Assembly (NCBI GenBank): GCA_963769935.1
Contig: CAVYNY010000032.1
Location: 32,001-96,000, forward strand
Source: an uncultured delta proteobacterium
GTDB taxonomy: Bacteria; Desulfobacterota; Desulfobacteria; Desulfobacterales; JAFDCJ01
Direction: 5' to 3'
Length of the DNA: 64,000 bases
Under the pieces are notes generated by a model, which was not told where the DNA came from, did no database searches, and saw nothing but the letters and a program-made list of their open reading frames with translations. The stretch's first letter is position 1. Every line of letters starts with the position of its first letter. This document shows positions 1 through 51,171 of the stretch, in pieces. Made by a program: the position numbers and the translations under genes.

Positions 1-368
1 AGGCGGGATGCCGTGGAATAGTGCCGGATAAACATCAGATTTTCAGAGGCCGATATGATTTTTAAATCCTGCCGGCCGATAATGTCTTCGAAATTGGGAA
101 TACTTCCGCAGAGGTCGGGATCATAATGCTGGTACACCAGCGCCTGTATTTGTTGGGGAGCAATGCCGGTCTGCAGGATCTTCATCATAACGGTCGCAAA
201 ATCGGGACGGCTCCCGCCGTCGATGACCACGGCTTCATCACCGTCGACAATCAGATACGGGTTGCAATGCAGCCCCGACGGAGCGTCGTAAAATCCCACC
301 CAATAAATTCCCTCGGCAATTTCAACTGAACTTTCATAATCCTGCGCAGCGGATTCCGGTTTGACCAT
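1..368 (-). CDS. MBL-fold di-iron protein (ODP/FprA-like), runs off the window edge
   Basis: Not in the ORF track. Manual translation from ATG 368: MVKPESAAQDYESSVEIAEGIYWVGFYD...LHCNPYLIVDGDEAVVIDGGS...YQHYDPDLCGS. HxDPD-type motif; AAAAGGGA upstream. Confidence 0.8.
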   Translation of the reverse strand, partial: MVKPESAAQDYESSVEIAEGIYWVGFYDAPSGLHCNPYLIVDGDEAVVIDGGSRPDFATVMMKILQTGIAPQQIQALVYQHYDPDLCGSIPNFEDIIGRQDLKIISASENLMFIRHYSTASR

Positions 369-557
369 TCGTACGATCCCTTTTTATTGTCGAGATAAAA
401 ACGTGTATGAGAATTAATCCTAATACATACGGGGATTGGTGACAAGCTGTTTGTTGCGGCAGGGTAATCGATCCTTCCGATTTGCTGCATAAAATCTTTG
501 ACGACGTCCTCCAGAGTGCCGTAGATGAATGCCATGGGGTAGTGGAATAAATGAAAC

Positions 558-998
558 CTACAGTTTCAAAAAGCCGTCCAGGGTCAGGCTGGTTGCCAGC
601 ATCACGCTGTTAATATCCTGATGCGCGGTCCAGCTTTCAGCTTGTCCTGTATTGGGGATCAAGCCAGAATTTTTCGATTGCTTCGCCCAAACGGGCATAC
701 CGTCGGAGGGCGCTGACCTGCGAATAGATGGCGTGAATATTAGCGAGCATCTTCGGATTTTCTTCAATCAAGCCCTCGATCCCATTCCAGACGGTCGTCG
801 TATGTCTCATCGGACTTGCGTTCATTCATCTGCTTGCCGATTCGAAGTCCGCCGGTAAAGTTCAAGAAAGTTGCAAACGGCAAAAGCATCCGTCCAGAGA
901 TATCGCCGCGGCGGCTTGGCAGCGGTTGCCAGGCCGGTTGCATCGGAGAATTCGGCCATGATCCCCTTAACAGTAGAAATGTCTGCCGGTTGGTTCAT
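558..998 (-). pseudogene. Internally deleted and frameshifted remnant of a conserved hypothetical protein (RYLWTDAFAV family)
   Basis: ATG 998 gives MNQPAD...PPRRYLWTDAFAVCNFLELYRRTS (stop at 822-824). Other frames give ...FWLDPQYRTS / SWTAHQDINSVMLATSLTLDGFLKL*. I recall these as the N- and C-terminal motifs of one longer family. Confidence 0.6.
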
Positions 999-1088
999 AT
1001 CAAATTAGATCCAGCATCGACCTCTTAGAAGCGACGGTCTTGCGTCTGCCTCTGTTAGATTGTTATGCGGATTTAGGCAACGTTAAAG

Positions 1089-2267
1089 CTAACACAGCTC
1101 ACCTTGGGCCTGGTCCTGCGTGTATTTCAAATCCGAAAGCAGCGACAACTCGGCTTTGGCAAGCTCCCGGCCCAAGTAGGCAGCATGGTCCAGCTGCGAA
1201 ATGAGCTTCTTCTCTATCAGGGTGGCACAAATACTCGCCGAATCCTTGCCCTCGATCATGTTCATGAGCCTTCCGTCGTTGCTGTAATGTTCAATCAGCA
1301 GCGGATGCTCTTTGCCTTTCATTACCATGATCACGAAATAGCCTGCCGGATCGAGTTTCAGTCGCTTCGCGGGTTTGGCCCTTTGAATCTCGAGCAAATC
1401 TACCTTCAGGCCGGCTTCGTATGGTTGAACCGCCTGTTTATCCAACAGCTCCAAGCGGCCGGCGAGTGTGGACCGGTCACTTTCGCCGATCAAGTCGACC
1501 GGCTGTATTTGCTTTCTGAAATGGCTGACTTCGCCTTCGGTAAGGTTTTTCAACACCGGCCTGGCGCCGCGGGCACCGATAATTCGCTTGGTTTTGTCAA
1601 AGCCGCTGCCGGATAGATTTAGAAGCGCATCACCCGGTAAATGTCCTTCGATGTCGCTGCCCCAGAGCACTAAATGGCGGAGGTGGGGGTTGGCGATGAC
1701 ATTCTTGACGAGATGCTCTACTCCGAGGTTCTCGGTGCTGATGGTCCCCAAGATTGCAATTTTAGAAGAAAGAATGCTTAATTCCGGTTCATCGAAGTGA
1801 ACCCCTTGCAGGAGAGCCACGGCAATCGATTTTGCAGCGTTAAATACGCGGTAGTCACCCGGCTGCGCGGGCCAGTTTTGGATGCTAAATTCATCCGGTC
1901 GGATGAGTTCCATCCTGCAAGGATCGATAGAATCTGCCTCAACTTCGTCAAGGCTGTCCATAACTTCATTGAATGTGTTGTATGCCGGAACCGGCAGACA
2001 CGGTTTGCACCCCATTCATCCGTGCATTTTCAGGAAATCAGCATCTTTGATCCAGCGCTCGAAATCATTTTCGATCTCCGCTAAACAGTGATCGGATTCG
2101 ATTTTTCGAAATCCCCTTATTTTTTCGTAAATGCTGTTTAGGACGTCTCCATAAAAGCATGAACATGTGCGGCACTTTTCGTGCTGCAGGATTTCCTTGA
2201 AGTCCGTGTGAATCCGCTTAAAAGCCGTGATTTTTTGCGCATGATGCGAGGATGCGGTATTTTTCAT
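1089..2267 (-). CDS. Candidate selenoprotein: Cys/Sec-rich N-domain + MtrA-like corrinoid-binding domain + DUF4346 (392 aa, U84)
   Basis: ORFs 2016..2285 and 1089..2015 are in frame and separated only by TGA (HG*MGCKPCLP). GGAGG RBS precedes ATG 2267. MtrA motifs: WPAQPGDY, TENLGVE..VKNVIANP.LR.L, GH, IIGA.GA.P.L.NL. DUF4346 motifs: DPAGYF, HAAYLGRELAKAE, YTQD. Confidence 0.8.
1980..1999 (-). promoter_or_regulatory. SECIS-like hairpin downstream of the in-frame UGA
   Basis: mRNA GUCUGCCG-GUUC-CGGCAUAC; the loop starts with GU 25 nt after the UGA. Confidence 0.65.
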
Positions 2268-2350
2268 CTTTTGCCTCCAGGGCATTAGGTCCGTCGCAGG
2301 ACCGGTGGTTTTTCCTAATTCGTGCCTGAACGAAAAGTCTTCATTTGCGG

Positions 2351-2416
2351 CAGGTTGGGTTGAGCCCGAAAATCAGGCTCCTACGTCGATATGGATGCCC
2401 GAGGGCGAAACCCAAC
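2351..2416. repeat. REP-like palindrome (GTAGGTTGGGTTGAG...CGAAACCCAAC family)
   Basis: AGGTTGGGTTGAG...CGAAACCCAAC; same family as 30278-30383. Confidence 0.6.
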
Positions 2417-2471
2417 ACAGCCGTTGGACGGGTTTTGTTCAACCACTAGTTAAGCTGTCACTGATTGCTTA

Positions 2472-2627
2472 GGGTTCACGAAAAAATTAATTCACAATTT
2501 TAGGCGTTGAGGCGCCCGGACGGCAAGGCGCGAAAACGCAGGAATATCTGGATATTCGGAGCCTTCGCAACGCAGCCGGGCGGGATGCATCGGCGTATAA
2601 AATGTGAAGTTATTTTTGAGTGAGCCC
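2472..2627. mobile_element. 156-bp MITE, copy 1 (TTA target-site duplication)
   Basis: Imperfect terminal inverted repeats GGGTTCACGAAAAAATTA / TTATTTTTGAGTGAGCCC; TTA on both flanks (2469-2471, 2628-2630); near-identical reverse-complement copy at 55141-55296. Confidence 0.85.
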
Positions 2628-3482
2628 TTAGATTAGCCGAATTGCGATGATATAAATTAAACATTTTTGCGCGACATGTCGAATGATCAGTGTAACGGCA
2701 TCAAGTATTGCATTGGGCTTAATAGACAGTTGCGGCGCAAATCATTAATTTCCAAATAAGTTGATTTGCTCAGCAAATTCATCTTTCCAGATGTTTCACC
2801 TCGTGCCGTCCGGGCTTTAACCTTCTGCCTCAATGCAGCCCAGGCTGCCGGGAAGAAGATTAGAGATTGTTATAATTTTACGGGATGTCAAAAATTATAC
2901 GTAAGATTTTATACATGACGGCATAATTATTGTGTATACATACAGCGTTTTTTTATTTGGCACGGTACGGTAATTTTAAAACAACTACAAAAAGTCGAAT
3001 ACTGCACTAATTATAACGTGTGTATAGCTGGTGAAACTAACATTCTTATCATGCTCCGGTCATCCTAGGGTTAAAGTCTAAAATTAATATCTAGGCTTGA
3101 GAACGCCGATTTTCCTTTAAACGAAGAAGCGGTACGAAAAAAGAAGTAAAAAGAGTAAATTCCAGCGTGAAAGAAAAACCAAATATGCCGCAATCGAATA
3201 CATGTTTCCGGAAAATTAAACCTGAACTTCTGTATTCCCGGAATACTGTCGCGATGCGGTGCAGGGCCGAAAGTGCACGAGCAAAAGAAATGCAGGTATT
3301 ATAGAAAGTCGAGCATCGGTATTAATATATGATTATATTGTGGCATTAAATGGACATTGCGACTGTGTAGATGCACAGAGAGAGGTAAGGCGGCAGCAAG
3401 ACCTGTAGGTGATTAACTGAAAACGGCAGGCCGTGTTTTAATTTACTATCACTGTCAAATCAGCCCGAACCGGCCGCCCACT

Positions 3483-6400
3483 TCAAATTTCAGGCGCCTT
3501 TTCAAGTTGGCCTAGCGAAATTCGGCGGGTTTTTGCTGATCCGGTCAACTTCTCCTGCAACCTGCCAGATAGATATAAATAACCGGCGTAATGTAAAGGG
3601 TCAGAAACTGGGAAAAAATCAGACCGCTCACGACGGCAAGACCAGGGGGCGACGGGCTTCAGTGCCTGCGCCATAGCTGAAGGCGATGGGCAGGGTTGCC
3701 AGGAGCGCCGCTATGGTGGTCATCATGATCGGGCGGAAACGCAGAATGCAGGCTTCGAAAATTGCCTCATCGGGCTTTCGGCCTGCGGTACGCTGGGCGC
3801 TCAGGGCGAAGTCAACTATCATGATCGCGTTCTTTTTAACGATTCCGATAAGCATGATGATACCACAAAGGCATAGATGCTCAAAGAGAGTTTGAAGATG
3901 AGAAGAGTCAGCAGGGCGAGAAAGAGGAAGGAAGGAAGAGAGAATAGTAGGGGATGGAGGAAACTTTCGTAGAGGACGCTCAGTACGATATAGATGACCA
4001 TATGGCCATAAACAGAAACTAGCACATAACTTCATAGATTATGGAACTACTGGGCTGTGCTTGGAAGCTGGTAGTCAGGGAGGCAGGCAGACGAAGCTCT
4101 CTGACAAGTCTGCTGATTTTTGCAACGGCATCTCACAGAGAGACATAGGCCTTAGATAGAAGGACAAAGTGACAGATGGAAGCTGCGAGGTATGGTTTAC
4201 GGTAAAGGGTAAGACGCGCTGGATAAAAGTGGTCACAGATTACAGGGGGATCAGAAGGCCGGTGGATGAGCGGGTGTAGAGCATGCTAAGGGCTGACGGG
4301 TACCGTTGATAGCGGGGTTACACTTCCAGGATCACCTGGTATTAGTTATAGGATGCATATATGATAGAAAATGAAGAGAGATATAAGAGATGTAGAGGGT
4401 GTTAAATTGCTGGGAGTAAAGATAAGGAAGTAGATTTGTAGAGATAGATGTAAAGGAAGATTGAGAGCTGAAGATTGAAGGTAGATGGTAAAATATGTAA
4501 TATGTAAGGTAGAGCAGCTAGGTTAAATAATAGAGGAAAATGGTAAAGCTAAAAAATGGATGGAAATGGATGGTGTACTGGTAGGGGATATAGGTAAGAT
4601 GCGATAAAAAAGAATAATAGGGGGGTTATGCAGGTAGAATATATATAGGGAATATAGGAAGATAGAAAGAAATATATGGATAAGTAAGAAGGAGATAAGA
4701 AGGAGATATGTGAGAGGAGAGAGAAAAAAGATGAAAAATAAAAGAGTAGAAGATAGATGAAGAAAAGATAGCTAAGAAAAAAGAAATAAAAGATAAAAAA
4801 AGGGTAAAAGGAAGATGAAAAGGGAGAAAGATTATGGAGTAGAAAAAAGGAGAAGAAGGAGAAATATAGGGAAGATAAGGTGAAAAAAAAGATATGGTAG
4901 GTGTAATGAATGGGAATAAATAATAAGAGGATAAAGAAAAAAAGATAAGAAGTGGAAGAAAAAAGGATAAAAGAAAAAAAAAGAAAGAAAAGGAAGTGAT
5001 ATAAAATATATAGAGAATATATAAAAAGGAAAGAAGAAAGGAGAAGAAAAAATAATAGGAAGAAGAAAAAAAAATAAAAGGTAGGATATAAAGGTGAGAA
5101 ATAAGAAATATGATGAAAAGAAAGGGAGAAAGAGTAAAAGAGAAAAATAAAGATAAAAGAATAGAAAGGAGATAGAGACTGCAAACTAGCGCAGCAGCCT
5201 CTAAGAAATAAGGCCGGAATAAATGTAGGGAGAGAGTATGGATATAATGGTAAAGAAGATTATATAGAAAAGTAAAGGGAGGAAGTAGAAAAAATATTTT
5301 ATAATTAGATATGAAGGAAGATGTTTAAAGAATAAAAATGGAGTAATAAAAGACAAAAAAAAAAAAAAAGGAAAGGGAATAGAGGAGAGATAGTAAAGGA
5401 TGTAATAGAGCAGATGCATCAAAGCGAAAGTTGCAATAATAGAAAGAGGAAGTGCAGACTGGGAATGATGGTGGCTGGCAGGTCCGCAAAAAGAGAAAGA
5501 ACAAAAATGAAGACACCCATACATGAGAGGGTGAACTAGAGATACTGAATAGAGTAAAGGATGGATAGGGAGAGGTAGTAGAGAATGTAGAGTTAAACAG
5601 AAGAGGGAATCTGAGAGAGAAAGGTAGGCAGAAGCATTTTGATAGAGTAGACAACAGAGACGGTGTTTGTGCAGGGCTGGCGTTGAATGGACAGGATGAA
5701 GGCGCGCTGGTACTTGTACGAACTAGCGACTTTGTGATTTTACACGCTGTCAAGGACTAGGAGAAGCTGGTAGAGATAGAATAGGTGAGAGTTGCGATAG
5801 GAGACGATGAGAGGGCGGTATATGGAAGAGTACAGAAGCTGGAAGGTTGCGGTGACTGTAAAGCCTGGTAGTTTACGCTCAGGGCGAAGGTGGGAAGATA
5901 GACGTTGGCGTAGGCAACGCATCTAAGACTTCTTAGATTAACAGGCAGTAGGAGGTCAGGGCATTAGGGTTCAACTGGACGCGCAAGGCGTATTTTTGGG
6001 AGCAGAAAACCTGGACTTGCGAGACGCTGTACACATGGAAATACGCTGCGCTATGAGGGTTTCAGCATATTCATCTACAGTAGACAGCGGCAGGATGAGT
6101 GAGCTGAGAGACACAAGTAGAATAGACTGCTAGGCAGGGTTGACTTTGCGGAATGAAGGGGGATTAGGCATTTAAGGCGGGAGAAGAGTTGGGCGAGGGA
6201 AATGGAGTTGTGACGTACAGCGCGCATCATCAATATAGCGATTCAGCGAGAACTGCAGCGTAATCTGGGAGGTACACAAGGCACTGGTGGAGGTCATAGA
6301 GTACAATAAGGCGATAGTGGTAAACTGTAGTTACAGCGGCGTAGAGACTGAAGAGGACATGGTCTAGGGACTGGCTAAAGGCAGGCTGGCGGAGACTGGA

Positions 6401-6533
6401 TAGTGGGAAAATACACATTAGGCAGGGCACTGACCGGGAGAAGCAGATAAGCTATGATGCAGAAAAGGAGAATAAACGCTATAAACAGCGTAGTCATTAC
6501 GGGGCGGCGGATAAAATGTTCGGAGATACTCAC
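3483..6533 (-). pseudogene. RND efflux permease (MdtB/MdtC-like), heavily corrupted, probably by sequencing or assembly error
   Basis: N-terminus [15 protein letters not shown]...[16 protein letters not shown]-terminus [21 protein letters not shown]...[24 protein letters not shown]. The ~3.05 kb span fits a full-length RND gene; the middle is degraded. Confidence 0.75.
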
Positions 6534-6539
6534 TGAACT

Positions 6540-7701
6540 TATACTCCGTTGATTTGCTGGGAGCCTCTGCGATTTTAGACATGGGAGCAGGGAAAAAGAC
6601 ACAGCTGGCTGTCTATCACGACGTTCTCTACGTTTTGCAGTCCCTTATCTATAATCGCTTCCTAGTTAACGGTTCTTTACACAAAGATGGGCAGATACTA
6701 CGCGGTAAGGTCAGGTTTGACCACAAAAACATATTGCTACTACTGTACCGTTTGAACGCTAGGGAAGGAACCACTATCGCTCCGGGCTTCTAGTGAGGGT
6801 CACCACAACGTTTACAAACTGGCTCGGCCAAAGCGACTTGTCTTTGTTGGGGAAGGAGGCCTTGAGCTGTATGGTTACGGTGGAGGGATCGACAGTGTTG
6901 TCCATGAAGGTCACTTCGCCGTTGGTAACCTGATCCTCACGGCTCGCAACGGTTGCCCCGACTCGAGCTTGCCTGAAGCCATGTATTTCCTCACGTCGGG
7001 CAGATATTTTTCCGGGATGAAAAAATTGACGTAAATGGGACTTATCTGGTTAATAATTACGAGAGGGTTTGCAGCATCATTGGATTTGACGAGGTTTACA
7101 CGGTCAACCTTCAAGGCTCCGAGGCAGCCGTCGATGGGAGAATTGATGAAGCAGTGGCTCAATTGAAGCTTTCCATTTTCAATGGCCGCCTCGTCCGCCT
7201 GGACAGTAGCCTTGAGCGCCGCGGCATTGGCTATGACCTGATCGTGCTGCTCATGGAAACATACCCTTTTCCAACGACGGATGTAACGCGTTTGAGCTCT
7301 TAGAGGGCGTTTTCGAGCTGGGCATTGTCTTCGCCAGAGCGGCTTGCATCTGTTTAAGCTGGGCTTGGACAAACCTTGGATCGATCGTGAAAAGCGGGGC
7401 GCCTGCCGCCACGCATTGGCCATCCTTAAAGTGAACCGCTACCAACTCTCCATCGACCTGGGCCTTTACCGATACGGTAGCGTAGGCCTGGACAGTCCCT
7501 ACGGCCTGAATCTGGATGGGCACGGTTTTCTCAGTCACGGCCTGGACGCTGACGGGCAAGGTCGTCTCTGCGGTGGGCAGCGCTTCGGGCTCAGAAGCAG
7601 CGTCTTTGAACAACGGCAACAACATTCATGACTACTAAGAGTGAAATCATGCAGCGCAAAGACGAGTCTGGAAAGATGAATAAATTAGATGGCGTTTTCA
7701 T
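6540..7701 (-). pseudogene. RND periplasmic adaptor (MdtA-like), frameshifted
   Basis: AVGTVQAYATVSVKAQVDGELVAVHFKDGQCV..G.PLFTIDPR; LQLSHCFINSPIDG...LVIINQISPIYVNFFIPE. The 3' end is approximate. Confidence 0.75.
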
Positions 7702-7829
7702 GGATATTTGTATCCTTATAACTTGATCCTTTTTAGAGCGACAGGTGCTCGATCCTCTGCAGGAGATCTGAGAGCGGAAATAGTGTTGGTGCCGGCGCTT
7801 TAATCGCATGGACACTCAGTGCACGCGGC

Positions 7830-9213
7830 TCGAGTCTACTCAGCTCCGGGGACGGAAATGCCATCCTCCCCGAGGGCTTTGAAAAGGCTTATCAAAGCTG
7901 TTGAAACTCCCTGCTCGTTCTGGACGAGTTGGTCTTACCTGAAATAAGGACGCCGACTCTGCAGGACGTTAGAAAGTCTACCAGGCCTTTAACATACAAT
8001 TCACTGGAGATATCAACGGCTTGACGGTTGGCCGTAACGCTCCACGAGGGAACGGCGCGTCTCCTGATTCTTAGAGTAAATGACAATGGCATTTCAACGT
8101 CCTCCAAGGCCCGAGGACCGTATTCTCATAAAAAAGGAGCGCCTGTCCTGACGGGCGCTTTGCACCTCGATCGTCGCTCTGATTTTGCGGCGTCAAAAAG
8201 AGGCCATTGCACGCTGGGTCCGGAGTCAAAAGCGGCTGTCCGGGGTCACGAAATCCGAGGCCTTCGTGCTTAGCAGGCCATACGTGCCGGTCACGAAAAG
8301 CTTGGGAACAGGGCAGCTGTTGCAACCCTATGCGGGCAGTCGCCGCCGCAAGTTCGCGCTCGGCACGGCGGATGTCAGGGCGTCGGCGCAGAATCCGATG
8401 GTAAGCCGATCGGCACTTGCGGCGGCACCGGCGGAATGGATCCCTCTTCAAGAGTTCTCCAAGCAATGCTTCCGGCTCCAAGCCAGGAGTACGGCCAAAC
8501 GATGGATCGCTTGCGGATAGAGATTCCAGGGGAGGGACCTTGGCCTCCGTTGTCGCAAGCAGGGTTTGCGACTGAGCAACGCCAGAATATTGCCAGGCCG
8601 GCCTCATATCGCCCCCGCGTAGATACAGGGTCTGCTGTTCTGATTTGATATTTTCCCGGGCGATGGCGATCCGGCGCTGATTGCCGCGTACCGCGAGGTA
8701 GTTTGCGGCAACCTCTCCCAGTAACGTCACCAGGACATCACGGCGATTCTCCTCTGAAGCGGCAAAGTGAGCTTCGGCCGCCTCACAGACCGCCGCACAC
8801 CGCCGAACAGGTCAATTTCCCAGCCGGCATCGAAGCCGGCCTGAAACAGGTTGTAATCGTTGCCCGCCTGGTTGGTTGAGGTGTTCTTACTCTGACTGAT
8901 GCGGGTGTATGATCCTGAAGTATCAATGGTCGGGTAGGCCTGTGAACCGCTATCTCAGATGTGCCGTGCCTCACGGATGCGAGCCTGGGCCAGTTCAGGT
9001 CCTTATTGAACGAACGGCGCGATCGATGAGGGAGTCGAGTTCTTTATCCCCGAAAAGGGTCCACCAGCGCAGCACTTCCAGTGGGCCGGCCGAGAGTCCT
9101 GCGCGCTCTGTCTCTTCCCAGTTGGCCGGGACCACGGGCTCGGGTTTCCGATAATCTGGACCGACCGTGCAGCCGAGGATAGAAACTAACAACAAAAATC
9201 CAAAAGCTCGCAT
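7830..9213 (-). pseudogene. RND outer membrane factor lipoprotein (NodT/OprM-like), frameshifted
   Basis: Lipobox ILGCTVGPDY, WWTLFGDKELDSLIDRA, LLGEVAANY, LRRRPDIRRAERELAAATARIG. The 3' end is approximate. Confidence 0.75.
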
Positions 9214-9768
9214 TGAAAACCTGTCCCTTCACCGCCACGGAAGCATTTAGAAAGACTCCTAATTGTTGAGGCGTTTATTTTTCTTTAAGGGTAAAGGTCG
9301 TTTTGATGGAATGTCTGGCGCGGTTGGTTGACGGCAGTTTTCAGGGGGTTTGTATCGCGAATGCCACGAGAGCCTCCTGATGAGCAAATAATCCGATCAC
9401 GGAATTCAAAAATTTCCGATATGGCAAGATAGCGCATCAGGCCAGCCGTTTATAAAGTTTCTTATTTAAAAAAAAACGTCAATATCGACCTAAAATACAT
9501 CATCATCCCAAAATTCTCAAGGATAATTACCAGATAACCCCTAAACGCCGCAGTCGGCGCAATTTTTGCTGTATTATAAGGCGCTTATTGATGAAGTCGG
9601 AGTGAATGGCTATAATGGAAGTGCCGACATGCATAATCGCTTAAAATATGGACAGAATACACAAGATTTCAGATATAATCTTTGGAAAAAGCATTGATCC
9701 GGTCTGATAGTATACTTATTTTTAAAAACCATGCTAACTCTACAGGGACAATTCATAAGGAGCCGAAC

Positions 9769-9903
9769 ATGACCTTTCACGTATCGTTGCAGCCGTTATT
9801 GGCAATCATAGCAGGGGTCCTGATCCTGGTTAGGCCCCGCCTGTTAAGTCACATCGTTGCCATATTTTTGATTTTATTCGGCATCCTGGGTTTGGTTCGC
9901 TAA
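9769..9903 (+). CDS. Small membrane protein (DUF3096-like)
   Basis: MTFHVSLQPLLAIIAGVLILVRPRLLSHIVAIFLILFGILGLVR; AAGGAG RBS. Confidence 0.8.
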   Translation: MTFHVSLQPLLAIIAGVLILVRPRLLSHIVAIFLILFGILGLVR

Positions 9904-10130
9904 ATTAAAATTCAATTTGGAGACGGAGATAAAAAATGAACTGAAGAAGGCGATCGACATGATGCGATCACAATATTTCAGGGATGAGGCCAGGCAAGAG
10001 AAAGTATGGCCGCCGATTGTATCACCAGACAAAAGATATCTTCCGATTGCGCCTGCTGTTGGAATTGCAGCCGATAAAGAAAAGGTGATAATCAACGATC
10101 GGATAAACGTTTTTCAAAATTCTGTCGAGA

Positions 10131-11951
10131 ATGTCTATGGATTCAACGCCAGAAAAAATGGGTTCTCGCGAGGGCACTGATAATAAAGAGTTTTCGAGCG
10201 CCGCCGCCGAGAAAAATCATATGGATAGAGCGGCCGTTATCACCCCGTTGCCGCACCGGTATATCATTAAAGATTCAAACGACGGCCGAATTCTGACCTG
10301 TCTCGAAACACCCAATATTGCAGTTCATATTGAAGCCGGAATGACGATCTCCGCCTCAGCCGCCCGCAAGTCGTCTCCCGGCGCCATATACCTCGACGGC
10401 GCCGCTCAAAGTGAACCTTTCATGGATAATGAGAAGCAGATTTACAACTTTGACCACCATGAAGGATGTTTGCGGCCGTTTACGCTTTCAACCTGCGAGC
10501 AGGTCCTGGTAATGATTTTTAAGGGCCTGGACCTGCGCGGCCGGGATTGGAGGGTATTTGCCAACGAACCGGACTTGGACACAATCCTGGCAATCTGGCT
10601 CATTTTAAACCATCTGCGGATTCAAAAAAAAGATTCCGGCCGTCTGCAGTTCTTATATGCGCTGGTTCGGCTGGAGGGTATCATAGATTCTCACGGATTG
10701 GAAATGACCGGGTTCAGCGGATTGCCACCGGAACTTGTTAAAAAAACAAAAAAAGTGATCGACTATTTGCGTGCCGAAGAAATTGATTTAAAAAAGAACG
10801 CTATATGGGAGGAAATCGACCGCCTGGAACACACCGCCTTGATATTGCAGAAAATCGACCGAATCATCTACAGATCCAATGATCTGGCCGATTTTAAAGA
10901 ACTAAGCGAACTGTCACGGATTGAATTGGGAGGCAGCCGCATTGCCGTTGTCGTCGAAGCCGATCTGGGCATTTACGAGCTTGAACCCCACCTGCAAAGG
11001 GTGTATGGCGAAAGCATCGGGCTGGTGATTCTCAAAAAGGGAGAAGGCATTTATACTCTGCGTCGTTTAGATCCCTTCATGCCGGGTGATCTGAATGACG
11101 TGTATCGAATATTGAACTATATTGATCCCGCCGTCCGATGCCGCACAAACAGCAATCAATGGGGCGGATCCGGCGACATTGGCGGCTCGCCGCGAGGAAT
11201 TTCTACCAAACTGAGCCCCGCCGAAATTGCCCAGGCCTGCCGCGACGCCTTTCAGAATCCCAGACCGGCCGCCTATGTGATTCATTTTATCTATGCCCTA
11301 ATGGCAGTAATTGCAATAGTTGGGGCGGCTGTCGCAAGCGATTTATATCTTCCGTCCGGTTCCTGGCTCAACAAGACACCTGCACTCGGGCTGGTTTCAA
11401 AAACATATTTTTCTTTTTTCGGCGCCCTAGTATTTTTCACGGCCGTCGTCATCTTTTTGATATCACGACGGCGGTTGTGGCGATTTGGATTTGGCATCCC
11501 GCGCGGCAAAGATTGGTGGATTTGTTTGCCGGTTGTCCTGCTGGCTGCGATGGCAAACGGTGTCTATTTTCCAAATTCAGCTTTTCAATTTTTGAATTTC
11601 AATAAAAGCATAGTATATGTTTTTATCGCCATTCCTTTGGCATCCGAGTTGCTGTTCCGTGGTTTGGCCTACGGTATTTTAGCCGGGGACATCGGTGTTC
11701 AGAGCTGCAACACCCCATGGTCCTTTTCATATGCAGCGGTTGCTGCGGCAATTTTGTATGCCGGCTTTATCACATGCCTCACGTTCCTTCCGGAGATGTC
11801 CCAGGGAGCATTTCAAGCGAAAATCGTTGCCGAAACCGCCTTTGCTGCATTTGCCTTTGGACTCGCCAATGGCATTGTCAGGGAAAGGAGTCAGAGCATC
11901 CTCCCGGCCGTTGTTTTTCACGCCATGGCCATGGCTGTTTTCGTCTTTTAA
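10131..11951 (+). CDS. DHH-like phosphoesterase-fold domain fused to a CPBP (CAAX/Abi) membrane domain
   Basis: YNFDHHEG, NEPDLD and WGGSGDIGGSPRG in the soluble half; multi-TM C-terminus with SELLFRG and RERSQSILPAVVFH. Confidence 0.7.
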   Translation: MSMDSTPEKMGSREGTDNKEFSSAAAEKNHMDRAAVITPLPHRYIIKDSNDGRILTCLETPNIAVHIEAGMTISASAARKSSPGAIYLDGAAQSEPFMDNEKQIYNFDHHEGCLRPFTLSTCEQVLVMIFKGLDLRGRDWRVFANEPDLDTILAIWLILNHLRIQKKDSGRLQFLYALVRLEGIIDSHGLEMTGFSGLPPELVKKTKKVIDYLRAEEIDLKKNAIWEEIDRLEHTALILQKIDRIIYRSNDLADFKELSELSRIELGGSRIAVVVEADLGIYELEPHLQRVYGESIGLVILKKGEGIYTLRRLDPFMPGDLNDVYRILNYIDPAVRCRTNSNQWGGSGDIGGSPRGISTKLSPAEIAQACRDAFQNPRPAAYVIHFIYALMAVIAIVGAAVASDLYLPSGSWLNKTPALGLVSKTYFSFFGALVFFTAVVIFLISRRRLWRFGFGIPRGKDWWICLPVVLLAAMANGVYFPNSAFQFLNFNKSIVYVFIAIPLASELLFRGLAYGILAGDIGVQSCNTPWSFSYAAVAAAILYAGFITCLTFLPEMSQGAFQAKIVAETAFAAFAFGLANGIVRERSQSILPAVVFHAMAMAVFVF

Positions 11952-12036
11952 AGGACAAGGTTTATGCTAACATTGAAAGCCTGTCCCTCCGGGTCAGGAT
12001 TGTTTACCGCTACAAAATTTTTTGATGAAGCCTCTG

Positions 12037-49941: not shown

Positions 49942-51171
49942 TTAATCCATGATCAGGCAGTCGGCGACCAGCTCCCAGAGGTATTTGACCTGCAGGCCTT
50001 CAAAATCATAGTGACTTTTGATATTTTCCAGCTGGCCGTGGCAGCTGTGGCACGGTACCACCACCATGGAAGCACCGGTAGCTTTGATTTGTTCCATTTT
50101 CCGGCGGCCATAATAAATTCGTTCTTCGTTGTAGCCGGTCGTCAGGGCACCGCCGCCGCCGCCGCAGCAAATCTGGAGTTGTTTGGATGGATACATATCG
50201 ACCCAATTTTCCAGGCACTGGCTCATAATCCAGCGGGGCTCCTCATAGTACCCATGGCCGAACAACTTTTCCGCCTTACGGCAGTAGTTGCAGGGATCGT
50301 GATAGGTCGCCAGAACATCATAACGGCCTTTATCGATTCGGATGCGTCCCTGTTTGATGTAGTCAATCAATAGATCAAACACGGTGAACACACCGATTTT
50401 TTGCAATAAGTGGGGGTGATATTTTTCCAGACCAGACCTGGTCGCAAGGTACGCGTGACCTCATTCCGGCCACATCAGGTTCCGGATCTCCAGCGTTTCC
50501 AGCTGGTGAGCGATGCGGTCGACCATGACTTTCATGGCCGCATCGTCGCCGGTGAATAAACCCCAGTTGACGCCTTCCCAGGCGTCGGATGCAACGGTCC
50601 AGTCTTCACCGGCCGCGAAAAAAATTTTCCACCAGTGTTTTAAATCTTCGGTGTGGGTGTTGACCAGCTTATTGTGGATGGTGGTCATCAGGTTGGCACC
50701 CTTTTTGTCAAGCGGCACCTGAAACCCCTCGAAACCGGGTTCTTCGCTGATTTCCGCCGCCACATCCTCCAAAATGAAGATAAAATCCTCTTTGGGAACT
50801 CCCAGGTTGTTGCCCGTCTTCATGGCGGCGGCCACCCCCTTGTGCAGAATTCCCGGCACCTGATCCCGGTCTCTGAGAGAGCGGATACCCCGCATGACGT
50901 TGGGGATGTCGATCTGCATCGGGCAGAGATATTCACATCTGGCGCACATGGTGCATATCCATGGCCAGCGGGATGCCACCAGCTCCTCTTCGAGTCCCAG
51001 CGTGACCATGCGGATAATTTTGCGTGGATCGAAGCCGTCAATTCCGCTCACCGGACAGACGCTGGCGCACAGCCCGCAGGTCTGGCAGACTTCCTGGGCA
51101 TAGGTCCAGGATTTGAATCGATTCCGCGGCAAGTCGCGGATATCGATGATGTTTTTGGTCTCATTGGTCAT
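49942..51171 (-). CDS. HdrD/GlpC-like Fe-S oxidoreductase, selenocysteine-containing (409 aa, U237)
   Basis: Two CxxCxxCxxxCP motifs; in-frame TGA at 50461-50463 in PE*GHAY reads through into YHDPCNY...CCGGGGG...PCHSC. Confidence 0.88.
50430..50443 (-). promoter_or_regulatory. SECIS-like hairpin
   Basis: GACCA-GGUC-UGGUC begins 18 nt after the UGA. Confidence 0.75.

Follow-up and report, generated by a model that had tools for sequence, protein, structure and literature searches.

On the minus strand of the window, i.e. the whole stretch of 64,000 nucleotides that was analysed, two open reading frames (2016-2285 and 1089-2015) share one frame and are separated by a single TGA at 2016-2018. 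Read-through of this codon results in one gene of 392 residues, in which the UGA takes position 84 in the context HG-U-MGCKPC, downstream of CRTCSC (translation from the ATG at 2267). The gene has the following features:

1089..2267, minus: read-through gene, 392 aa, one in-frame UGA (U84)
2274..2278, minus: ribosome-binding site GGAGG, 6 nt ahead of ATG 2267
2016..2018, minus: UGA, predicted selenocysteine 84, first position of a U-x-x-C-x-x-C motif that reaches 1998
1979..2000, minus: predicted bacterial SECIS hairpin, core 1983-1996, loop GUUC 1988-1991
1938..2267, minus: N-terminal domain of four helices (residues 1-110, approximately) that contains the six invariant Cys/Sec positions
2157..2174, minus: CxxCxC motif (C32, C35, C37), found in 28/28 TGA genes that cover it
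1434..1883, minus: MtrA-type corrinoid-binding domain, residues 129-278 (Pfam PF04208, E=1.4e-35)
1641-1643, minus: His209, which matches MtrA His84 (alignment to 5LAA)
1113..1355, minus: PterinBD-DUF4346, residues 305-385 (Pfam PF14251, E=5.9e-23)

A sequence-only reading of this DNA had described two in-frame halves that are split by one TGA, with a GGAGG site ahead of ATG 2267 and no convincing one ahead of ATG 2015, and all of this holds. Inspection of the sequence revealed no GGAGG-like site upstream of ATG 2015, and GAGG- or GGAG-like sites stand ahead of the matching ATG in most homologues among those listed. The gene is solitary, being flanked by a repeat element and by small ORFs of no assigned family. 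The repeat, which lies upstream of the gene at 2467-2631, is a MITE-like element of 165 bp with terminal inverted repeats; it has about 80 matches of more than 120 nt in the genome, with 84-96% identity among the matches listed.

There is indel damage in the assembly near the locus, where RND efflux genes are fragmented, as well as in selA, and a sequencing error at the TGA therefore had to be excluded. Contigs of two runs (X1 and X3) bridge 2016-2018 with zero differing letters, a third run covers the TGA close to a contig end, and a fourth has no coverage, the comparison comprising 4 of 20 listed runs, of which the two bridging ones come from one study and X1 is possibly the source sample. 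The codon reads TGA in the contigs of other runs, and not TGC or TGT, which the sequence-only reading had considered; the TGA does not stem from an assembly error. At 3483-9238, the RND efflux genes lie in many fragments, probably owing to a failure of the assembly consensus, and the stretch 4000-6500 is purine-skewed, with a GC content of 30% and a GC skew of up to 0.9.

Codon 84 and the hairpin that follows it

We examined 59 loci, 11 of them genomic (this one included) and 48 metagenomic, of which 5 have no coverage of codon 84. Among the 54 loci that cover it, the codon is TGA in 46 and Cys in 8 (4 TGT and 4 TGC), and it is TAA or TAG in none; as the patterns of the metagenome scan came from close relatives, the ratio of TGA to Cys describes that clade and not the whole family. 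The homologues thus have an in-frame TGA or Cys at position 84, and the refutation by separate genes with TAA, TAG or a shifted frame, or by another aligned residue, which had been envisaged from the sequence alone, did not occur. Dereplication at 95% DNA identity reduced 43 TGA loci to 31 genes, which are 53-83% identical in DNA to the gene at 1089-2267 and in which TGA84 is the sole in-frame stop, with the exception of one (L068) that has an extra TAA. The codon after the TGA is CTG or CTC in most homologues and ATG here. In the databases, 119 among the best 120 matches cover at most 78% of the query protein, and one (P0048) is a full-length match with Cys. The matches aligned to the query begin at, or just past, the recoded codon, and the severed N-terminal halves stand as separate entries of 78-114 aa.

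The gene is rare and patchy, being found in 3/401 genomes of the class and in 0/7 genomes of the same genus. A single-protein scan of genome contigs returned one distant locus only, and a search of a phage collection for homologues gave zero matches. In a tree of 32 proteins with midpoint root, the 17 Sec forms group with a single Cys form (L053) in one clade, which has a support of 100/99, and the other Cys forms fall outside of it. Constraining the Sec forms together without L053 gave a p-AU of 0.042, a borderline value from a 17-row subset and for a group that was named after the tree had been seen. The simplest reading, for a tree rooted at its midpoint only, would be one gain of Sec that was followed by at least one return to Cys.

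The predicted hairpin UGCCG-GUUC-CGGCA has its loop at nucleotides 25-28 past the UGA, with a spacer of 24 nt, and a CCG-GUUC-CGG hairpin with its loop 25 nt after the UGA is what the sequence-only reading had seen. It stays within the limits for spacing, loop G, loop size and energy of the bSECIS consensus as outlined in PMC13188914, i.e. a loop of 3-9 nt with G in loop position 1 or 2, at 16-37 nt from the UGA, and an MFE of at most -7.5. The MFE of -15.9 kcal/mol corresponds to a z of only -1.38 in comparison to shuffled sequences, which is not significant, and folding energy alone was therefore rejected as SECIS evidence. The 14-nt core TGCC(G/A)GTTCCGGCA is present in 31/31 TGA genes and exact in 0/8 Cys genes, the nearest of which is one base off. 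Across the 31 TGA genes left after dereplication, all but 3 of 67 four-fold-degenerate sites vary (median entropy 1.71 bits). The exceptions are the silent sites of V93, P94 and A95, all of which lie in the hairpin loop and 3' stem; the silent site of P92 is restricted to G or A. We regard this silent-site selection, and not the energy, as strong evidence for a SECIS element. Covariation that would support the pairing was not found across the 31 TGA genes, and the loop-closing pair is broken in 6 of them.

It had also been pointed out that the hairpin shares its CCR-GKUC-YGG apex with the one after a second UGA in the window. That second hairpin, CCA-GGUC-UGG, does exist, but the likeness is weak evidence and was discarded as an argument, since the same apex pattern occurs 70 times in the genome at 17-29 nt past a TGA, and since the apices of the two selD genes differ from it. 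The second UGA (50461-50463, WPE-U-GHAY) belongs to an Fe-S oxidoreductase-like gene (49942-51171, minus), which fits the known row "Fe-S oxidoreductase-like, UGH" as given in PMC13188914.

All components of the Sec machinery, for which selA, selB, selC and selD had been named as the genes to look for, are present in the genome: tRNA-Sec (selC), selB, two selD genes that each have an in-frame TGA, and selA, which lies in two pieces and two frames in the assembly. The genome contains tRNA-Pyl as well as tRNA-Sec (contigs C11, 285724-285797, and C3, 6328-6425). The three other TGA-bearing genomes have selB, and so do all six Cys-form genomes tested; the presence of selB therefore does not discriminate between the Sec and the Cys form. 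Going by Table 1 and the Fig. 2 model of PMC13188914, the system has in common with bacterial selenoproteins the UGA/Cys alignment, the hairpin with a G-led loop at a distance of 16-37 nt, and selABCD.

Could the UGA nevertheless be a true stop or a sequencing error, leaving two genes or a pseudogene? The indel damage in the vicinity and in selA, the ATG that directly follows the TGA at this locus, the existence of stand-alone N-domain proteins and the extra TAA of L068 would agree with such a view. However, TGA at the identical codon, never replaced by TAA or TAG, in genes of 53-83% DNA identity argues against it, as do the stop codon's place at the first ligand position of a CxxCxxC that is invariant otherwise, the CTG or CTC instead of ATG as next codon in most homologues, the frozen hairpin and the same TGA in other runs. 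We consider this explanation extremely improbable. Insertion of Sec at U84 via SelB and the hairpin is predicted with very high confidence from these comparisons, and it is very likely that the gene, which databases split at the apparent stop, encodes one soluble selenoprotein of 392 residues.

Domains of the protein and their known relatives

The AlphaFold model, with Cys standing in for Sec, has a pLDDT of 92.6 and a pTM of 0.80, and 7/7 Foldseek matches of this model at E<=0.001 are MtrA. In the N-terminal domain, C32, C35, C37, U/C84, C87 and C90 are invariant in 40/40 rows. This domain has no clear relative by sequence or structure, Foldseek giving 0 matches at E<=0.001, which is not proof of a new fold; the best VIA results (Z 7.9, rmsd 2.1, 74 aligned) are generic helical bundles. 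It also occurs in free-standing proteins of 80-130 aa, often with Cys-rich tails. A nitrile-hydratase-like reading of the CxxCSC motif was dropped because the Ser varies.

In MtrA, the cobamide contacts His84, Glu54, Thr53, Asn55, Gly57, Asn64, Asp17 and Tyr18, as described in PMC4915002, align to H209, E179, T178, N180, G182, N189, D138 and Y139, respectively. T178, E179, N180, G182, N189 and H209 are invariant in 32/32 rows, and Y139 is conserved in 31/32. The retention of the MtrA histidine, which had been recognized in the sequence-only reading, is thus confirmed and extends to its partner residues. Hence the contacts, including the pair His84/Glu54 that corresponds to H209/E179, are common to both proteins, and binding of a cobamide in a base-off/His-on mode through H209 and E179 is predicted with good confidence.

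The C-terminal DUF4346 has nine residues (D306, G309, F311, E326, H327, H361, Y364, G366 and E368) that are invariant in 32/32 rows. Elsewhere, DUF4346 is fused to thymidylate-synthase-like and dihydropteroate-synthase-like proteins, and because of these folate-type fusions and the Pfam name it might, as a weak suggestion, bind a pterin methyl carrier. Two loci (L007, 286-1740; L009, 289-1764) encode thymidylate-synthase-like proteins of about 490 aa with DUF4346 at the end. Another group of bacterial MtrA-like proteins, of about 410 aa, is followed by a Cys-rich protein of 140-165 aa (L024, L025, L026 and L031). Comparison of this partner with the N-domain detected no relationship (probability 0.5%), and it was rejected as a relative; it has no significant Pfam match either. 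In a further locus (L027), an MtrA-FeS fusion with a Pfam FeS domain lies behind arsP and a thioredoxin.

The read-through protein has the fold of MtrA (PF04208; PDB 5LAA and 5L8X), with TM-scores by target of 0.64-0.86, but it is bacterial and contains an extra Cys/Sec domain as well as DUF4346, and it scores below the cut-off of the MtrA model TIGR01111 (104 versus 249 bits). MtrA has a C-terminal membrane anchor, whereas the read-through protein has none in its model and ends in DUF4346. Neither mtrH nor mtrE (PF02007, PF04206) was found in the 96.7% complete genome, the search being directed at these two subunits, which agrees with the earlier description of a soluble, stand-alone protein that has no other mtr genes nearby. 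As there is no membrane anchor in the model and neither mtrE nor mtrH was found, the protein is not an Mtr subunit. Bacterial MtrA homologues that keep His84 have been noted before, and the accessible text of PMC4915002 ascribes no function to them.

The same three-domain layout is described by NF002128 (PRK00964.1-6, "tetrahydromethanopterin S-methyltransferase subunit A", 390 positions), which, unlike the read-through gene, does not represent a selenoprotein. Its alignment spans residues 8-390, across the UGA and with the N-domain included, at 293.6 bits as compared to a cut-off of 568. No functional study of NF002128 was found; the Cys form of the layout has been modelled and not characterised. 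The sequence-only reading knew of no described selenoprotein family with this architecture. This stands insofar as the family is absent from the 119-family catalogue of 2026, where the descriptions given in PMC13188914 include no entry for MtrA, PF04208, tetrahydromethanopterin or DUF4346; it does not stand for the Cys-form layout, which already exists as NF002128. The supplements of PMC12013277 were searched and have no entry for this MtrA/DUF4346 selenoprotein family, a full-text search (with most subscription papers outside of it) gave no papers on DUF4346, on DUF4346 with selenoprotein, or on MtrA with ArsR and heavy metal, and a wider literature search gave no title or abstract start on the family. 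The selenoprotein family is real and apparently uncatalogued.

HgcA is a membrane-bound protein with a ferredoxin partner. HgcA/HgcB (NF040863/NF040864) can be compared to the read-through protein by functional analogy only, the common traits being a corrinoid protein that can carry Sec, a tie to a heavy metal and the occurrence in anaerobic Desulfobacterota. The corrinoid fold of HgcA, which is listed as a relative of the CODH/ACS gamma subunit, differs from the MtrA-type domain, and the Sec motif of HgcA is CU, whereas that of the read-through protein is UxxCxxC. Among NCBIfam hits of the read-through protein at E<=1, NF040863 is not found. Selenoprotein forms of HgcA/HgcB are described in 10.1101/2022.07.06.499078. 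The genome has its own full-score hgcA on another contig (C11:436156-437133), and hgcA exceeds the cut-off in 0/5 other carrier genomes tested, for which reason a link between the two genes was rejected.

Gene neighbourhoods and metal(loid) resistance

Within 4 kb of the family genes, we counted ArsR, ArsM, ACR3, ArsP, CDF and P1B-ATPase together with two unnamed partners as markers. At least one of them was found at 7/10 Cys-form loci (all seven with ArsR), at 4/29 Sec-form loci and at 1/4 unassigned loci, which has to be taken as a description and not as a test, since the markers were chosen after the loci had been viewed, the flanks of the Sec forms were short (on average 3.6 of 8 kb) and the relatives are not independent. 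With random placement in this genome, markers are met at 0.9%, and the whole 8-Mb genome has 5 ArsR genes over the cut-off. The Sec-form locus at 1089-2267 has no metal or arsenic marker in its flanks. On contig C17 of this genome (88000-126000) there is a metal/arsenic cluster with ArsR copies, ACR3, CDF and ArsP, in which two ArsR-like matches contain an in-frame TGA.

Several loci illustrate the association. A cultured Planococcus has a small plasmid with an operon in which the genes for ArsR, a metal chaperone and a heavy-metal P-type ATPase (cadA-type) are followed by that for the Cys form. A stand-alone N-domain is encoded between arsP and arsM inside an arsR-arsP-arsM-acr3 cluster (L012), and in one genome (G514) the gene directly upstream of the family gene is ArsM-like and has an in-frame UGA of its own. 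In addition, a PCYCGC-family gene whose product ends in ...HGAG was observed upstream of a Cys-form homologue (L084, 8177-8497); the PCYCGC family has known Sec forms.

A recurring cassette combines ArsR with two further proteins, one of them small, predicted to be exported and marked by CxxxxC, the other a membrane protein with an invariant CCGxP. It stands beside a Sec form (L067) as well as beside Cys forms (L083 and L089). A further Cys-form locus (L086) has ArsR and the CC-motif membrane gene without the small protein, which itself appears fused to P0162. The pair of exported and membrane genes (CxxxxC and CCGxP) is located as follows:

L067, 897-1842
L083, 7759-8690
L107, 1044-2001

There is no Pfam or PDB match for the pair, whose homologues in the database number at least 214 and frequently lie close to ArsR or ArsP. 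The CC-motif membrane gene occurs in 9/401 genomes of the phylum and adjoins an MtrA-like gene in only 3 of these nine, which argues against an obligate link; in the flanks covered for the other 6, there was no MtrA-like neighbour. The CC-motif membrane neighbour is reminiscent of MerT, but its identification as MerT was rejected, as the Pfam hits of 26 members include no Mer family and as no PDB match was found.

A dedicated gene for a methyl donor or a reductant is not conserved beside the family. The neighbours do not agree on one metal (As, Cd/Zn, CDF, Cus-like), and this possibly reflects no more than shared metal-resistance islands. Rfam returned 0 matches at gathering score for window positions 1-12000 and 40 related loci, and thus no cobalamin riboswitch was found there; the upstream regions have no common motif beyond close relatives, and a scan for promoters and terminators remained at chance level. 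Because of the operons led by ArsR/SmtB, we have moderate confidence that the family plays a role in metal(loid) stress, and what lies next to the genes of Cys-form relatives supports the metal(loid) part of what had been guessed from the sequence.

A possible methyl transfer at a Cys/Sec-bound metal(loid)

The explanation that we favour, with a probability of roughly 0.45, is that the protein may function as a soluble corrinoid methyl-transfer selenoprotein whose substrate is a metal(loid) at the Cys/Sec site. A cobamide would be held base-off/His-on in the MtrA-type domain, the N-domain with its six Cys/Sec positions would grip a soft metal or metalloid, with As, Hg, Cd/Pb and Sb as substrate candidates, and a methyl group would move between the cobamide and the metal(loid) in either direction. 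The methyl source could conceivably be a pterin carrier on DUF4346 or a neighbouring SAM methyltransferase, and the selenolate might perhaps sharpen binding or reactivity at the metal site. Among the points that count against this explanation is the Cys form on the plasmid of an aerobic Planococcus, which is awkward for Co(I) chemistry.

Two alternatives are serious rivals. In one of them, the protein is a selenoprotein and corrinoid protein whose six Cys/Sec ligands are occupied by a resident Fe-S or Zn cluster for electron relay or structure. It would then be soluble and carry methyl groups for one-carbon or sulfur metabolism, and the link to metal operons would be incidental. Six invariant ligands in two clusters indeed suit a resident cofactor, 25/29 Sec-form loci have no metal marker, DUF4346 travels with folate-type enzymes, and the related bacterial MtrA-like protein of L027 carries a Pfam FeS domain. 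Yet Cys forms on deep, separate branches adjoin ArsR, C1-pathway genes do not recur among the neighbours, and the rare and patchy distribution does not fit well. We regard this alternative as rather unlikely. It is similarly unlikely that the protein is a non-catalytic binder of metal or of cobalt/corrinoid, i.e. a buffer, chaperone or sensor in metal-stress operons, whose Cys/Sec domain sequesters metal and whose MtrA domain binds or protects a corrinoid without methyl turnover. The invariance of the full His-Glu ligand pair of MtrA methyl transfer speaks against such a binder, as do the ArsM-like genes that adjoin the family gene in some loci, and the one-time gain of Sec together with the frozen SECIS suggests a reactive site; on the other hand, the N-domain also exists alone and often with Cys-rich tails, the neighbours are transporters and regulators, and no partner methyltransferase is conserved.

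A more far-reaching version of the favoured methyl transfer, which we consider improbable, would be a second corrinoid organometal route that is independent of HgcAB/MerB. In such a route, methylmercury or a methylated metalloid would be bound at the Cys/Sec site, and its methyl group would pass, within a single chain, to Co(I) and then by way of DUF4346 to a pterin. If true, this would be a candidate for the anaerobic oxidative demethylation of methylmercury by sulfate reducers or, run in reverse, a metal methylase that has escaped recognition and that has an ArsR-controlled cassette for uptake. Oxidative demethylation in sediments is reported in PMC11511217, where a study on sulfate reducers and methanogens is cited.

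The family adds to the prokaryotic selenoproteome and is, going by the 2026 catalogue as presented in PMC13188914, the first on an MtrA-type B12 domain. Its recognition corrects a systematic annotation error, as the database entries inspected begin past the UGA, and it provides a first functional lead for stand-alone homologues of MtrA in bacteria, which carry an unsupported label as methanogenesis proteins. The function can be tested directly, owing to the recurring cassette with its metal regulator and to the Planococcus plasmid with its Cys form, and if methylation or demethylation of metal(loid)s by this family is true, it would bear on mercury and arsenic cycling in sediments.
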